A DNA stretch of 5,582 bases from a virus (taxonomy: Duplodnaviria; Heunggongvirae; Uroviricota; Caudoviricetes), in IMG/VR virus record IMGVR_UViG_2695420430_000001. One strand, written 5' to 3'. Of the stretch, positions 100 to 5,582 are shown in pieces; position 1 is the first letter of the stretch, and every line of letters starts with the position of its first letter. A model generated the notes under the pieces. It made no database searches, was not told the DNA's origin, and saw nothing but the letters and a program-made list of their open reading frames with translations. Position numbers and translations under genes: made by a program.

Positions 100-230
100 G
101 TACTGTAAAAGCGGTGCCAGTCGGCATACTCCGTGGATGACATCCCGGCAAGCATGGCACGCCAGTCGGGTCGCCCCATCTCACGCGCCAGTTTCAGGGC
201 AAAACTCAGCTCACCGTCGAACACTTTCCC
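100..230 (-). pseudogene. T: 5' portion of the T frame of the G-T tail assembly chaperone fusion, reached by -1 frameshift and truncated by the IS insertion
   Basis: After a -1 slip at GGGAAAG (224-230) the -1 frame reads GKVFDGELSFALKLAREMGRPDWRAMLAGMSSTEYADWHRFYST. It then runs straight into IS sequence at the 99/100 boundary and stops at a TAA at 53..51 inside the IS. The expected lambda T frame is about 140 codons; here only 44 phage-derived codons remain in the window. Confidence 0.6.
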
Positions 231-628
231 GCAGAAACAGGCTCTGCAGGCCCGGCGTCCTCTGTCTGTTCAGGGGCATTATTCACCACAAACTCATACA
301 TACCGGACAGCCGGTACACCACGTTTTCAGCATGAGAAATTGCCTCCGTGGGCCAGGTGGTAAGCACTTCCTGCTCAATTTGTTTAACGGCTTCATTCAT
401 GGACGGCATCTGCGTCTTCTGCGGATGGTTATGCCACAGGGACATCGCCACCAGAAACGCGCCGGTTCTGATGGCGTCTTCCACAGTAAACTTCCGATTG
501 CTGTCTGACTCCGCCTGTTCTGCCTGCCGTTTCATCAGGGCGAGATGCTCAATACGCTGCAGGGCTGACAGTTCAGAAAGCGTGACGGTCACACCGTTAT
601 GTTCAAATGATTCGGTTTTCAGGAACAT
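206..628 (-). CDS. G: Tail assembly chaperone gpG
   Basis: 140-aa ORF with ATG at 628..626 and a GGAGAG SD 8 nt upstream; TGA at 208..206. Position immediately after V and the internal slippery site match lambda G; the sequence resembles lambda gpG by recollection. Confidence 0.85.
   Translation of the reverse strand: MFLKTESFEHNGVTVTLSELSALQRIEHLALMKRQAEQAESDSNRKFTVEDAIRTGAFLVAMSLWHNHPQKTQMPSMNEAVKQIEQEVLTTWPTEAISHAENVVYRLSGMYEFVVNNAPEQTEDAGPAEPVSAGKCSTVS
224..230 (-). promoter_or_regulatory. Programmed -1 ribosomal frameshift slippery heptamer G GGA AAG (G to G-T)
   Basis: Minus strand reads GCG GGA AAG TGT TCG ACG GTG AGC TGA; the heptamer sits 6 codons before the G stop, and the -1 frame stays open beyond it. 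The G-T frameshift is established for lambda and for tail assembly chaperones generally. Confidence 0.7.
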
Positions 629-643
629 CTCTGACTCTCCGGA

Positions 644-1384
644 TTAACTGGCGGTGACGGTGATTTCTGCAACCGCAGCAAACTCACCATTACCGGATAC
701 GACCGGAATGTTGACCTTACCTGCAGCAACGCCATTCACGGTGATGGTCATACCACTGACCGACACGGTGGCTTTTGTTTTATCCGCTGACACCGCACGG
801 AAGCTCTTGTCGGTTGCGCCTTCCGGCTGGAAGGCCACGGTCAGCGTGGTGCTCTTCCCTTTCACTACGGAAGCGCTGGCTGGCGTCACGGTCATGCCGG
901 TTGCCGCTGTTACCGTGCTGCGATCTTCTGCCATCGACGGACGTCCCACATTGGTGACTTTCACCGTGCGGGTGATCACTTCCTTCGCCGTCACCGCCTT
1001 ACCGATACTGCTGACCCAGCCACGGAACACATCGACCGTGCCGTTCGGGAAGCGGATTTTATAGGCACGGGTATCGCCTTCATTAAACCACGCCAGCAGC
1101 GCCTGCTGCCCCTGCTCTCCGGGCATCCACGCCAGCGTGAAGCTGGTATCTCCGGCAGATTTCTGCCCCTGCCCGGTCGCGGTCCAGTCTGCATCTTCAT
1201 CATCGAGATAGCTGTCGTCATAGGACTCAGCGGTCATCTCGCCCGGCGTCAGATCCTTCACCTTAGCCAGTCGCTGCCAGTCATCGTCTGACAACGGGTT
1301 TGCATAAGCATCACCCTTGCCGTTGTAAACCCACAGAGTGGTACCGGCACCTTTTACCGGCTCAAGGGGATTTGGTGTTGCCAT
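644..1384 (-). CDS. V: Major tail tube protein gpV with C-terminal Ig-like (Big_2-type) domain
   Basis: 246-aa ORF with ATG at 1384..1382 and a GAGGA SD; the translation (..[24 protein letters not shown]..; C-terminal ..[29 protein letters not shown]) matches lambda gpV in length and motifs by recollection. Synteny is U-V-G. Confidence 0.92.
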
Positions 1385-1391
1385 ATCGTCC

Positions 1392-1787
1392 TCACATCTC
1401 GTATGTAATGGAATAAGTCAGATCTGCAGAACTCCATAACGCCATATCGTCATCACGACGATACTCATAGCCCTGCGTAACCATCGTGGTAATCAGTCCT
1501 GCCAGTGCCGGGATCGCGGTCATCGCCGGGTAAATCCGGCTTTCCATCCACTGATCGAGCTCTGAATCCGGTACCTGTGCCGGTAAAAACACCTCAATAT
1601 GCAGTGTGGCCCGCCAGGTATCTGCATCCAGCTCTTCACCGGTATACTCTGCATCCGTCAGATAAACCGCGATCGCAGGAAAATCCTCTTCGTCAAAAAC
1701 AACGGGGCGACCATCAAACAGCGTCGCCCCGTGTTCATGCTGCTCGAGTGCATCCAGCACTGCGGCACGAATGTCAGTGTGTTTCAT
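1392..1787 (-). CDS. U: Tail tube terminator protein gpU
   Basis: 131-aa ORF ([41 protein letters not shown]), the same length and motifs as lambda gpU by recollection. Its ATG (1787..1785) overlaps the Z stop (1786..1784) as ATGA, indicating translational coupling. Confidence 0.9.
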
Positions 1788-2359
1788 CGTTTTATCGCAA
1801 TCCTCAGTTGTTGTTTCAGCGCGTATGCCAGTTCTTTAGGCAGGCGTTCACGCCGGATACGGTCAACATTCTCATCAAATGCCTGTTTCAGTGGGGCCGC
1901 CATCGGGATTTTCACCACCTGAATGGGAAGGCGATTACGCTTTTTCCTTCCCTTGTCGTCATTGCCCTCCTTATATCTGGCCTGGGGAAGACGTTGCATA
2001 ACATGCCAGCGCCCATTATTTAATCGCTGGATAAATGCCCGCTGATAACGATGCTGACCGGCTTTGAGTATGCTGTTCGGACGACGCCCCAGCATTCTGA
2101 TCCCCAGCTTAATCACAGGGAGATCACCGCGGTTAACGATAATTCTGGCATTCGGATTTCTGACCGTCGCCCGTTTCAGTCTGGACCGTTCCTTTACCAG
2201 TTTCCGTCTCACCCTGGTTTCCCGGGCAACCTGTGACGAAGACTGATTAATCGCCGTTGTGGCCACGCGGTTAATGGTCATTGCAGAAGCAGCCGGAATG
2301 GCGTTTTTACGAACCCGGCTCAGATTGTCAATCGCCTGATCAAGCCCTTTTATCGCCAT
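1784..2359 (-). CDS. Z: Tail completion protein gpZ
   Basis: 191-aa ORF ([38 protein letters not shown]) resembling lambda gpZ by recollection; ATG at 2359..2357; located between FII and U as in lambda. Confidence 0.9.
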   Translation of the reverse strand: MAIKGLDQAIDNLSRVRKNAIPAASAMTINRVATTAINQSSSQVARETRVRRKLVKERSRLKRATVRNPNARIIVNRGDLPVIKLGIRMLGRRPNSILKAGQHRYQRAFIQRLNNGRWHVMQRLPQARYKEGNDDKGRKKRNRLPIQVVKIPMAAPLKQAFDENVDRIRRERLPKELAYALKQQLRIAIKR

Positions 2360-2373
2360 AATTCACCCTGCGT

Positions 2374-2727
2374 TTATCGTCGCCGGTTAACTGCGGGTGG
2401 TTGCCCACGGTTGAGCCAGAGATAACAGCTACCCCCGTCATCCGGAGAAACACGATCCACCCAGAATGTCTCACCATTAATGGTCAGCGTGTCACCACGC
2501 CGCACGGCACGAACCGTATCCGTCCGCACAAATAATGACGGGCTGCTTCCTTCAATACGGACCCCGCTACCGGCAAACCCCAGCGACTCCGGATCGTCAA
2601 AAACCCCCTGAACTTCGCTGCCACACTGTGCCCCCGAGGTGAACTGCGCACAGAGCCCCATCACTTCAACAATCGTTCTGTCCACCCCGGCAAGGGCAGC
2701 ATCAAAGGAATTCTCAAAATCACGCAT
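2374..2727 (-). CDS. FII: Head-tail joining (head completion) protein gpFII
   Basis: 117-aa ORF (..GVFDDPESLGFAGSGVRIEGSSPSLFVRTD..WVDRVSPDDGGSCYLWLNRGQPPAVNRRR) with the same length and conserved C-terminus as lambda gpFII by recollection. Its start ATG (2727..2725) lies 8 nt inside the 3' end of FI. Confidence 0.9.
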   Translation of the reverse strand: MRDFENSFDAALAGVDRTIVEVMGLCAQFTSGAQCGSEVQGVFDDPESLGFAGSGVRIEGSSPSLFVRTDTVRAVRRGDTLTINGETFWVDRVSPDDGGSCYLWLNRGQPPAVNRRR

Positions 2728-3088
2728 AAACGGCCATTCCGCTCCTGACCATGTCTTTTGCCACTGAGGGGGGCATCAGAATTACTCTGCCAGCATCAAC
2801 ATGCTCAACAGGCTCACCTGTTTCATCGTCAACACCGCACAGGTAAAAACACTTCAGAAGCCTGATACGTTCCAGAATACCAACGTCATCCTCACCGGTG
2901 TGCCTGCATGCCTGCTCATGAACGGTATCATCAACATCTGCGATTTCATTTTCCGAGGCGCAAACCTCCTCTTCCCACTCTGCCACACGCTGTGCGATAT
3001 CCGCAGCACTCCCCGACATATCCGCCTCGCGCCCCAGCAGACCAGCCAGTTCACGAAGACGTTTCTGATTTTCTTCTTTTGTTGCCAT
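2720..3088 (-). CDS. FI: DNA packaging / head assembly protein gpFI-like
   Basis: The track ORF 2720..3136 begins at a GTG inside the upstream hairpin. The first ATG with a good SD (AGGGAG, 6-nt spacer) is at 3088..3086, giving 122 aa starting MATKEENQKRLRELAGLLGREADMSG..; the helical N-terminus, acidic linker and position between E and FII match lambda FI. Sequence similarity to lambda FI is weak and judged from memory. Confidence 0.7.
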   Translation of the reverse strand: MATKEENQKRLRELAGLLGREADMSGSAADIAQRVAEWEEEVCASENEIADVDDTVHEQACRHTGEDDVGILERIRLLKCFYLCGVDDETGEPVEHVDAGRVILMPPSVAKDMVRSGMAVYA

Positions 3089-3103
3089 ATCCAGCTCCCT
3101 GTG

Positions 3104-3132
3104 AAAAAAACACGGGGGCATTTCGCCCCCGC
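3104..3132 (-). terminator. Intrinsic-terminator-like stem-loop plus U7 tract between E and FI
   Basis: Minus strand reads CGGGGGC GAAAT GCCCCCG TG TTTTTTT: a 7-bp G/C stem (3131-3125 pairing with 3119-3113), a 5-nt loop, then seven T residues at 3110-3104. It starts 8 nt after the E stop and ends 15 nt before the FI start. Confidence 0.65.
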
Positions 3133-3139
3133 TCACGGA

Positions 3140-4168
3140 TTATTTCACCTGTACCACCACAAACTCATCCGGATCCGGCAGCACCATCAGCGGCGCGGAC
3201 TGCGTCATGGTGAATTCACAGGACGGATCGCCCACGGTCAGCCAGTGTTTCGGGTAACGGGAAGAAGCCACCACTCCTTCAGACAACGCCTGTGCATCCT
3301 TAATGGCTCCATAGCAACGAATCCCCTCTGCTGCCGTATTCCCCAGCACCAGCGTGCCCTCCGGCAGATAACGTTTTTCGGTACCGTCCTCTGCCACATA
3401 AGACGTTTTCGCTACCACAATGGCCAGATCGCCGTAATACCCCTTGAAGGATACCACTGCGCCCAGATCTTTCACTGCCGTTTCGAGTTGTGAATTTGAG
3501 CCGCGACGGGTATCCATTTTTTCGCGGAAAAGCTTAAAGCCATTCAGCAGACGCCAGACGGTACCGTCCATAATGGCAATATTCACAAGACCACTGGCCT
3601 GATCACAGAAAAGGTCGATATCATATGTCGGGTCGAACGTGTCACGATCCTGTTTTGACCACTCCTTACCGCTACCTTGTATGATGTTATTCTTCGTCGA
3701 TCGGCCAAAATCGACTTCAATTTTCTCGAACTGGTCTCCTTCCATCGTATATTTGCCATACAGCACGGCATTCACCGCCTGCATTTCTTCCACCTGCACA
3801 ATAGCGTGCTCTTCCTGTTTGAGGTTATCAGTGATGATACGCAGACGACGGTAGGCCGGGTCGTTCAGCTGAGCCGGATCTTCACCGGGAAGGCGCTCAA
3901 CCGCCTGCTGGTAATTAAATTCGTGTTTCGGCTTGACGTAGCCCGGACGCAACACGCGGGTTTCACCACCACGATGGCGCAGCACTTTTCCTTCAACGAT
4001 CGGGGAGACATAGGCCGCCACCGGCGTTTTTCCGGTAATTTTGTCCAGCATCACCTCTTCGGTGTGGAAATTCACCGTACGGCGGAAAAACAGCTCCAGA
4101 AATAGCGCACGGAATTTAACTTTTTGTTCGGTATAACCGAGTAACTGGCGGGTCGTAAACAATCCCAT
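3140..4168 (-). CDS. E: Major capsid protein gpE (lambda E family)
   Basis: 342-aa ORF with ATG at 4168..4166 and an AGGA SD; the translation shares long motifs with lambda gpE by recollection (..YVSPIV.G.V...GG....PGYVKPKHE..; ..AIVQVEEMQAVNAVLYGKYTM..; ..TRRGSNSQLETAVKDLG..; ..MTQSAPLMVLPDPDEFVVVQ..) and the same length. Confidence 0.95.
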   Translation of the reverse strand: MGLFTTRQLLGYTEQKVKFRALFLELFFRRTVNFHTEEVMLDKITGKTPVAAYVSPIVEGKVLRHRGGETRVLRPGYVKPKHEFNYQQAVERLPGEDPAQLNDPAYRRLRIITDNLKQEEHAIVQVEEMQAVNAVLYGKYTMEGDQFEKIEVDFGRSTKNNIIQGSGKEWSKQDRDTFDPTYDIDLFCDQASGLVNIAIMDGTVWRLLNGFKLFREKMDTRRGSNSQLETAVKDLGAVVSFKGYYGDLAIVVAKTSYVAEDGTEKRYLPEGTLVLGNTAAEGIRCYGAIKDAQALSEGVVASSRYPKHWLTVGDPSCEFTMTQSAPLMVLPDPDEFVVVQVK

Positions 4169-4196
4169 AAATCAGTTCCTTTCATTCAGAAATCAG

Positions 4197-4218
4197 TCAG
4201 GCCACCATGGTGGCCTGA
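4197..4218. repeat. Perfect 22-bp palindrome TCAGGCCACCATGGTGGCCTGA in the D-E intergenic region
   Basis: Seen in sequence: the 22-mer equals its own reverse complement, centred on CCATGG. It lies 7 nt after the D stop and 28 nt before the E start. No U-tract follows on the transcribed strand. Confidence 0.8.
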
Positions 4219-4225
4219 TAACGTG

Positions 4226-4573
4226 TTACGGCAGAGCCGCGTGACTCAGGGCTGTGCCGGCAAAGGCATTTGCCTTTTTGTGTTCATCCACACTGTCAGG
4301 CCAGCGGATTGCCTCCGTCGCAAAGGTCCCCGACTTGTAATAGGTCAGCACCGTCTCTGTGCCTTCAAGCGGCAGTACCAGTATGCCAACCGCACTACCG
4401 GCTTTCTGTCCATCCCAGACCACCAGTTTCCCGGTGGCTTCATCCAGCATCAGGGGCGTCAGAGCCGGTGTTGCAGAAGAAATCCCGCTGCTGCCTGTGG
4501 CGGTATGAGCCGGATCACTACCAGCAAAAATACGTACTTCCGCACGCTGTTCAGTGATGGTTTTCGTCACCAT
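4226..4573 (-). CDS. D: Head decoration protein gpD family
   Basis: 115-aa ORF with ATG at 4573..4571 and a GAGG SD; shares motifs with lambda gpD by recollection (SDPAHTAT, TPLMLD, KLVxWDG, AVGIL, YKSGTF, AFAGTA). Located between C and E as in lambda. Confidence 0.85.
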   Translation of the reverse strand: MVTKTITEQRAEVRIFAGSDPAHTATGSSGISSATPALTPLMLDEATGKLVVWDGQKAGSAVGILVLPLEGTETVLTYYKSGTFATEAIRWPDSVDEHKKANAFAGTALSHAALP

Positions 4574-4609
4574 TTTGTTAAAACCTCATATTGATGGTCA
4601 GCACTGACT

Positions 4610-5212
4610 TCATGGCATGGCCATGAGCATTTTCACGTCCGCATCACCGTCTGCTGACGTCTGTGACACGCCACCCCGCACCGCTGCCGGTGAATGATTC
4701 GCCATGAAATGTTCAAACAGGGCGGTTGTGGATGCAGAGACCGGTTCGGCCTTACCTGATCCCGCAGCCAGCACAGCCCGGGCGTTCTCCACGGTCATTC
4801 CCGGGCAGGCCGCCAGTTTTTCAGCCTGCGCTTCTGCCCCTTTTGCCTCATCCAGGGCCATGATCTGATCACGAAGTGAGGGCCCGGCATCCGCCAGTGG
4901 TGCAGCCGCCAGGATCGGGCGGGCTTTTTCCACCGTCATCTCCGGCATCGCCGCCAGCGTTGCCGCCAGTTGTTCACGACCGTTCGCTTCTTCACACGCC
5001 ATAATGCGATCGGCTTCACTCTGCGCGGATGCCACCGGCTGCTGCGGTGCCGCCGCGGCCAGAATCGCCCGGGCCTGTTCAATGCTCATGCCCTGTTGTC
5101 CTGCCAGCATCGTGGCAAGCTGTTCACGTCCTTTCGCTTCCTGACACGTCAGGATCCCCATCACTCGCTGGTTCTCCTGCGCGGCAGCTTCCGTTGCAGT
5201 TAATTGCGGCAT
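4610..5212 (-). CDS. Candidate nested in-frame scaffold protein (Nu3-like) initiated inside C
   Basis: In-frame ATG at 5212..5210 (residue M116 of the track ORF) is preceded by AGAGGAGG with a 4-nt spacer, a strong SD for a site inside a coding region. It would yield a 200-aa product coextensive with the repeat-containing C-terminus of C. In lambda, Nu3 is made from an in-frame internal start in C (established knowledge); applying that here is inference. Confidence 0.4.
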   Translation of the reverse strand: MPQLTATEAAAQENQRVMGILTCQEAKGREQLATMLAGQQGMSIEQARAILAAAAPQQPVASAQSEADRIMACEEANGREQLAATLAAMPEMTVEKARPILAAAPLADAGPSLRDQIMALDEAKGAEAQAEKLAACPGMTVENARAVLAAGSGKAEPVSASTTALFEHFMANHSPAAVRGGVSQTSADGDADVKMLMAMP

Positions 5213-5582
5213 AGTGCCTCCTCTGACATTACTGTTCAGCGCCGTGGCCATCACACTGATGGCATCCGACGCATTGATTAATTCATCCGCCAGCCCGGCC
5301 TCAATGCCGGACTGACCTTCAAAAACGGCGGCCTCTGTTCCCGTGACCGCATCCACAGACAACCCGGTATACATCGCCACTTTTTCGGCAAACATCCGGT
5401 GCGCCGCATCAATCCGCTGCTGCATATCCTGGCGAACCTCTGCCGGCAACGCTTCAAACTGATTGCCATCCACCTTGTGCGCCCCGGCATAAATCAGCGT
5501 GATATCCACACCGGCCTGCGCCAGATGACCGGCATAGCTGACATGGCTCATCATCACGCCAATGGAGCCGATACGGGATGTC
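4610..5582 (-). CDS. C: Prohead protease / scaffold gpC-like (S49 SppA-like peptidase C-terminal part plus scaffold region); 5' end lies outside the window
   Basis: The reading frame is open from the window edge (5582) to TGA at 4612..4610, with no stop in the 8 codons upstream of the track start; the track start at 5557 is a GTG and not the true start. The N-terminal part in the window (..GSIGVMMSHVSYAGHLAQAGVDITLIYAGAHKVDGN..EAAVFEGQSGIEAGLADEL..) resembles the lambda C / SppA protease family by recollection. Confidence 0.85.
   Translation of the reverse strand, partial: TSRIGSIGVMMSHVSYAGHLAQAGVDITLIYAGAHKVDGNQFEALPAEVRQDMQQRIDAAHRMFAEKVAMYTGLSVDAVTGTEAAVFEGQSGIEAGLADELINASDAISVMATALNSNVRGGTMPQLTATEAAAQENQRVMGILTCQEAKGREQLATMLAGQQGMSIEQARAILAAAAPQQPVASAQSEADRIMACEEANGREQLAATLAAMPEMTVEKARPILAAAPLADAGPSLRDQIMALDEAKGAEAQAEKLAACPGMTVENARAVLAAGSGKAEPVSASTTALFEHFMANHSPAAVRGGVSQTSADGDADVKMLMAMP
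4742..5167 (-). repeat. Three tandem degenerate copies of a ~42-codon module within the scaffold region of C
   Basis: Protein copies: RVMGILTCQEAKGREQLATMLAGQQGMSIEQARAILAAAAP / RIMACEEANGREQLAATLAAMPEMTVEKARPILAAAPL / QIMALDEAKGAEAQAEKLAACPGMTVENARAVLAAGSG. Copies 1 and 2 are also similar at the DNA level (for example 5113-5150 versus 4958-5000, about 75% identity by eye). Confidence 0.7.

Follow-up and report, generated by a model that had tools for sequence, protein, structure and literature searches.

An in-frame ATG at position 5212 of the window (the whole stretch of DNA that was analysed, 5,582 nt) very probably serves as the start codon of a nested gene that encodes a scaffolding protein, is homologous to phage 21 gene 6 and to lambda Nu3, and lies in frame within the 3' part of a gene for an S49 protease. 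Judged by the sequence comparisons given below, the nested gene is the orthologue of phage 21 gene 6 and as such it is already known: it is annotated in the phage 21 records M81255 and OL657228, so that the feature that was offered as a prediction in the initial annotation of this DNA had in fact been described before. No new biology is implied. The window belongs to a common E. coli prophage, and its gene arrangement is the one known from phage 21 (gene 5/6) and lambda (C/Nu3). The significance is mainly one of annotation, in that genome records lack the scaffold of a head module that is very common among E. coli prophages. As a by-product, the comparative data make it more likely that lambda Nu3 starts at codon 309 than at codon 239, where GenBank places it.

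The head module and the S49 protease

The DNA of the window belongs to a lambdoid prophage of E. coli. Bases 100-5582 match several E. coli chromosomes at 100% identity, and matches with a coverage of at least 80% of the window were recovered from more than 1,380 of the 5,426 complete E. coli genomes. All long open reading frames (ORFs) in the ORF list of the window are located on the minus strand and together they make up a lambda-type head/tail module. On basis of the PGAP and phage 21 annotations and Pfam, the gene order is portal - protease/scaffold - decoration - major capsid, as it is in lambda, and homologues of FI, FII, Z, U, V and G are found further along the same strand. The features that are relevant to the nested gene are listed in Table 1.

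Table 1. Features of the head module and of the predicted nested scaffold gene (positions in the window)
Feature	Position	Strand	Basis and remarks
S49-family head maturation protease gene, 3' two-thirds (homologue of lambda C and phage 21 gene 5)	4610..5582	-	Pfam, PGAP
Predicted nested scaffold CDS, 200 aa + TGA (4612-4610)	4610..5212	-	Translation; phage 21 gene 6 / lambda Nu3 homologue
Shine-Dalgarno sequence AGAGGAGG (core AGGAGG 5222-5217)	5217..5224	-	Sequence; within Arg-Gly-Gly codons AGA GGA GGC of the protease frame
In-frame internal ATG, 4 nt after the Shine-Dalgarno sequence	5210..5212	-	Codon 302 of the 501-aa protease/scaffold protein
Scaffold repeat 1	5048..5188	-	Residues 9-55 of the nested product; the 'Tri1 box' of phage 21 corresponds to 5145-5042
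Scaffold repeat 2	4898..5029	-	Residues 62-105 of the nested product; the 'Tri box' of phage 21 corresponds to 5005-4895
Scaffold repeat 3	4757..4888	-	Residues 109-152 of the nested product; the 'Tri3 box' of phage 21 corresponds to 4864-4751
Head decoration gene (homologue of lambda D and phage 21 shp)	4226..4573	-	Pfam HDPD
Major capsid gene E	4168-3140	-	Pfam Phage_cap_E; downstream of the decoration gene

The long product of the protease gene was read at full length (501 aa) in an E. coli chromosome that is 100% identical to the window, from which the N-terminal 178 residues, including S162, were taken as these lie outside the window. Residues 2-115 of the fragment encoded by the window match the Pfam family Peptidase_S49 (E=6e-25), and for the full 501 aa the match is to phrog_53 ('head maturation protease'; E=7e-228). 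The residues S162, S184, H191 and K214, which occupy conserved Ser/Lys/His columns, are invariant in six divergent homologues. The internal methionine had been numbered M116 in the initial annotation, which is correct for the ORF as it is truncated by the window; in the complete protein the same residue is M302. The full-length gene starts with a GTG outside the window (at about the window-equivalent position 6115), which is preceded by GAGGAG 9 nt upstream, and it shares 11 nt with the end of the portal gene, an arrangement that points to weak or coupled initiation at the GTG as compared with the internal ATG. PGAP recognized only one gene between the portal and decoration genes of the identical chromosome, a 501-aa 'S49 family peptidase'. 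The nested gene is absent from this annotation because automatic gene finders are unable to predict two genes that share one frame (PMC9041506), and in this respect the prophage copy in the E. coli chromosome differs from the phage 21 records.

The internal Shine-Dalgarno sequence and the probable start codon

Read on the minus strand, the site has the form AATGTC AGAGGAGG CACT ATG CCG CAA, in which CACT (5216-5213) is the spacer. The strong Shine-Dalgarno (SD) sequence that the initial annotation had placed 4 nt before an in-frame ATG of the C frame was recovered as described: the calculated pairing with the anti-SD (-12.0 kcal/mol) is stronger here than at any other of the 348 ATG/GTG/TTG triplets of the coding strand, and the window's eight other gene starts score between -3.9 and -7.4 kcal/mol. 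With 4 nt, the spacer is among the shorter ones usually found, and the spacing in lambda is identical. The hexamer AGGAGG occurs three times on the minus strand of the window and is absent from the plus strand. At the internal site it is written in minority codons, as AGA represents 9% of the Arg codons and GGA 17% of the Gly codons, and when the six upstream codons (NVRGGT) were replaced by synonymous ones, weighted by codon usage, an equally strong SD arose in 2.2% of the cases (P=0.022). No promoter-like site was found upstream of the internal start, and local mRNA structure that could sequester or expose the ribosome-binding site (RBS) was not significant (z=-0.65).

The position of the site within the protein likewise agrees with what had been claimed, namely a location at the junction between a protease part and a repeat-rich part: the S49 Pfam match stops 9 residues short of the internal Met and the three repeats are all found downstream of it. 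The same location, exactly at a domain boundary, could be taken to mean that the SD merely causes an elongation pause that aids the folding of the protease, and that no separate protein is made. Pausing at SD-like sequences within ORFs has been proposed, and is disputed. For a pause, an ATG at the distance of a start codon would be superfluous, yet in all lineages examined the ATG is conserved along with the SD, and in lambda Nu3 is genetically defined as a cistron of its own that overlaps C. We consider a mere pause site to be extremely improbable.

Two features of the same kind of sequence analysis may be mentioned here. The second-best SD/start pair in the window is TAAGGAGGGCA ATG (1962-1973, minus strand; -11.6 kcal/mol), which is located out of frame within the Z-like tail gene and opens only the 16-codon ORF MTTREGKSVIAFPFRW. 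Furthermore, two matches to the pattern TTGY-N6-TTGY are found antisense to the scaffold gene (plus strand, 5194-5207 and 4960-4973), the sequences being TTGCAGTTAATTGC, which overlaps nested codons 2-6, and TTGCCGCCAGTTGT. Such matches are annotated by pattern as CII-binding sites in OL657228; two were observed against around 0.5 expected. The matches are not accompanied by a plausible -10 element and a counterpart in lambda is absent, so that they are probably due to chance.

Phage 21 as one of the closest known systems

The record M81255 ('Bacteriophage 21 head gene operon') describes gene 5 (501 aa) and, nested within it, the CDS of gene 6 (5475-6077; 603 nt, 200 aa), with an RBS that is marked 'putative' at 7-11 nt upstream and with three repeat regions, the Tri1, Tri and Tri3 boxes. 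Independently of that record, OL657228, the complete genome of phage 21, lists a 'capsid protease/scaffolding protein' and a nested 'scaffolding protein' with an RBS. The corresponding region of phage 21 is 96% identical to the window at the DNA level, and the SD, the spacer and the ATG are the same in both. The start of gene 6 maps exactly to 5212 and its product has the same length as the predicted nested product, the two being identical at 190 of the 200 residues (95%; ten substitutions, no gaps). The three Tri-box repeats are shared as well, as are the flanking genes for the portal, the shp/decoration protein and the major capsid protein. The gp6 protein of phage 21 is recorded under its name in public protein collections, which contain no separate entry for the exact nested sequence of the window. 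Searches for literature on phage 21 in connection with Nu3, and on ribosome profiling of Nu3, provided nothing useful.

Comparison with lambda C/Nu3

In phage lambda, Nu3 constitutes the scaffold and C the protease (PMC3224144; Medina 2010 and 2011, as cited, are given for the same roles), and the two genes overlap (Shaw & Murialdo 1980, cited in PMC8508860). The lambda C protein and the window protein are 53-56% identical and both carry the S49 protease domain at the N-terminus. The arrangement of lambda, an internal in-frame start within C, had been invoked as a parallel in the initial annotation, and the parallel extends to the signals themselves: the homologous junction in lambda reads TCAGGAGGGCGAATG, thus AGGAGG-GCGA-ATG, at codon M309 of C (nt 5342) and in the same register as in the window. 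The DNA around the junction has otherwise diverged, with 34 out of 81 columns invariant among the three sequences that were aligned. The SD of M309 is the strongest among the 76 internal start triplets of lambda C, and the P-value for synonymous recoding is 0.008. The two proteins also have a C-terminal scaffold motif in common (ENxRIMGILxCEEAxGRE...MTVxxARxILAAAP), and a BLASTP search with the nested product against lambda yielded a match to the Nu3 region with 52% identity over 65 aa (E=1e-16), where all three repeats matched a single lambda segment. The difference resides in the layout of the scaffold part: lambda has one repeat of around 45 aa and a low-complexity insert of around 40 aa after the start, whereas the window protein has three repeats and lacks the insert. 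With an S49 domain, an internal start preceded by an RBS, a Nu3-like C-terminus and a location within the head module, the pair encoded in the window is, on these sequence characteristics, a lambda C/Nu3-type pair.

GenBank places the start of lambda Nu3 at nt 5132 (codon 239 of C), 70 codons upstream of M309, to give a product of 201 aa. However, M239 is devoid of an SD (-2.7 kcal/mol, P=0.64) and the window protein has an Ile at the corresponding position. Given the conservation of SD and ATG, the GenBank start is probably misplaced and lambda Nu3 probably starts at codon 309, which would yield a protein of 131 aa. Medina et al. reportedly took lambda Nu3 in 2011 to comprise residues 309-439 (131 aa), and presumably the UniProt entry for lambda Nu3 represents the same form, residues 309-439. 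The nested product of the window is longer than the 131-aa lambda product because it contains three repeats instead of one. The size parallel that was implicit in the initial annotation, 200 aa against the 201 aa of GenBank Nu3, falls away as a coincidence, as the lambda start at 5132 lacks an SD and corresponds to an Ile in the window protein.

The same data bear on the idea that translation of the nested product begins from a different codon of the same frame, either M319 (ATG 5161, ...QENQRVMGIL...) or the equivalent of the GenBank Nu3 start. The ATG at 5161 is conserved and has a moderate SD score (-7.4), and the upstream alternative has the GenBank annotation of lambda, with Nu3 starting from M239, in its favor. 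Nevertheless, the AGGAGA that precedes ATG 5161 ends around 12 nt upstream, which is a poor spacing, and the conservation of this ATG is explained at the protein level because the Met is part of a conserved repeat motif; for the upstream codon the absence of an SD in lambda and of a Met in the window protein argue to the contrary. Hence, there is hardly any likelihood that either of these codons is the start, and the ATG at 5212 is the preferred one.

Conservation in other phages

A scan of viral contigs recovered 80 related loci (52-99% identity), which represent 29 distinct junction contexts. The junction Met is kept in all 29, as well as in lambda, PhAER-2, Sano, 3HA14 and Siskin. A GGAG-type motif is found around 4-9 nt upstream in every context but one, the exception being the RKEDK context, with the weaker purine-rich sequence AAAGAGGA (-5.8 kcal/mol). 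The peptide that is encoded upstream of the Met varies considerably (RGGT, TGGT, KGGN, TQENT, TKENA, PGERN, RKEDK, TQEDR and SGGR). In a set of 15 representative lineages the junction Met ranked first for SD strength among the in-frame Mets in nine and within the top four in all. The more distant phages with an S49 protease (28-45% identity), namely Aeromonas PhAER-2, Xylella Sano, Mooglevirus 3HA14 and Chivirus Siskin, have the junction ATG behind the purine-rich, SD-like sequences AGGAAG, AGGAG, AGGTGAAG and AGGAG, although the motif is weak in PhAER-2 (-4.3 kcal/mol) and 3HA14 (-3.8 kcal/mol).

The recoding P-value was 0.002 for Sano and unremarkable (0.1-0.6) for several other lineages, because the amino acids that are present there (GG, QE, KE) already favor purine-rich codons. 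The nucleotide-level argument thus rests on the ensemble and not on single cases, while the lineages are related and therefore do not represent independent samples. The main weight of the evidence, as we read the alignments, is carried by the persistence of the SD motif through changes in amino acid sequence. This persistence is also what speaks most directly to the proposition that the SD is a coding by-product, in other words that Arg-Gly-Gly-Thr-Met happens to be spelled AGA GGA GGC ACT ATG without any role in initiation. The unremarkable P-values in these relatives are compatible with such a by-product, and so are the two further AGGAGG copies on the same strand, both intragenic (2970 in FI and 1971 in Z), one of which precedes an out-of-frame ATG with an ORF of 16 codons, showing that strong SD-like strings can arise without an obvious function. 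Yet a by-product would not be expected to retain the Met and a GGAG-type or purine-rich motif in 29 contexts and four distant phages despite the change in peptide, nor to rank first or near first in SD strength in every lineage. In addition, the SD of the window is written in minority codons, and the homologous region of lambda is the genetically defined C/Nu3 overlap. Chance spelling is therefore a very improbable explanation, and an initiation function of the internal site is preferred.

A nested CDS has been annotated in the record of one of the distant phages. In Sano, gp63 and gp64 represent the protease and the scaffold in one frame with a shared C-terminus, an internal start being assigned to the scaffold; the Sano protein is around 31% identical to the window protein and has one repeat. 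An analogous layout, with an N-terminal protease, a C-terminal scaffold and a scaffold that is also expressed alone, is known for UL26/UL26.5 of the herpesviruses. The herpesvirus system differs in that the protease fold is unrelated and in that UL26.5 is produced from its own promoter and transcript and not from an internal RBS.

The predicted nested product and its repeats

Translation from the internal ATG would result in a protein that begins MPQLTATEAAAQ and has a mass of 20.5 kDa, a pI of 4.7 and an Ala content of 24%. The 200 aa, the approximate mass of 21 kDa and the inclusion of all three repeats were thus foreseen correctly in the initial annotation. The identification of the product as a Nu3-like scaffold is equally borne out, by the coincidence of the start with that of phage 21 gene 6, by the match to lambda Nu3 and by the scaffold families in PHROGs. 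The nested product matches phrog_8399, 'head scaffolding protein', in three stretches (E=1.5e-33), and the PHROG families matched include Nu3-type scaffolds, with two Nu3 families, of 131 and 201 positions, present in that database.

The three repeats are clear at the protein level but were not detected by Tandem Repeats Finder at the DNA level, because they have diverged too far in DNA sequence. A sequence search of the PDB returned only insignificant matches to LacI (E>0.1). In the AlphaFold2 model of the nested product, which was obtained with a shallow alignment of 14 sequences and has a low confidence (mean pLDDT 50.9, pTM 0.22), each repeat consists of a long and a short helix and thus resembles a helix-loop-helix, and given this low confidence the helical-repeat architecture should be considered as indicative only.

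The copy number of the repeat of around 45 aa (the 'Tri box') varies among homologues. Lambda, Sano, Siskin and PhAER-2 have a single copy, a group of 451-aa proteins from E. coli has two, the 551/554-aa proteins have four and one protein of 657 aa has six; three copies, the phage 21 type, is the most common state (148 of 205 sequences). It is possible, though on balance doubtful as a combined proposal, that the helical module of around 45 aa acts as an expandable cassette whose copy number tunes the coat/portal contacts per scaffold, and that the GenBank start of lambda Nu3 is 70 codons off, with a real product of 131 aa.

Proposed expression and function

In the arrangement that we propose, one late polycistronic mRNA would give rise to both the protease and the scaffold. 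Initiation at the upstream GTG would yield the 501-aa protease-scaffold fusion and independent binding of ribosomes at the internal AGGAGG-N4-ATG would yield the C-terminal 200 aa only. Internal initiation on the late mRNA is put forward as the source of the short product because a promoter-like site and significant mRNA structure were both absent from the region analyzed. Considering that a near-perfect SD is paired with an ATG, the internal site would be expected to provide a large excess of scaffold over the rarer protease. The whole C-terminal region with its three helical repeats is common to both proteins and the protease would therefore co-assemble, so that a few protease molecules might join the scaffold in a procapsid that the major capsid protein forms around the portal. 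At a later stage the scaffold would be degraded by the protease, by which the packaging of DNA could become possible. For initiation, stoichiometry, co-assembly and degradation alike, we infer from the published genetics and biochemistry of lambda (PMC3224144; PMC8508860). The prophage may also be defective, in which case nothing would be expressed.

A scaffold-only polypeptide could in principle also result mainly from (auto)proteolysis of gpC near the junction, given that gpC is a protease, that the lambda head proteins are extensively processed and that the junction is a linker and thus likely to be accessible. Proteolysis would be expected to lead to a 1:1 stoichiometry, however, and it leaves the conserved, strong SD and the ATG unexplained. 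As the main source of the short polypeptide we deem it very unlikely; still, proteolysis and internal initiation are not mutually exclusive and may coexist.

The tail end of the module

At the other end of the window, the best E. coli chromosome matches, which are 100% identical over 100-5582, stop short of the first 99 bases. This break in the match points to a mosaic junction within the region of the G/T tail chaperone. A slippery heptamer, GGGAAAG, is located at 224-230 (minus strand), near the end of the G-like gene, and an ORF in the T frame continues downstream of it; the position of the heptamer in the G-like gene parallels that of the -1 programmed frameshift site of lambda G/GT.
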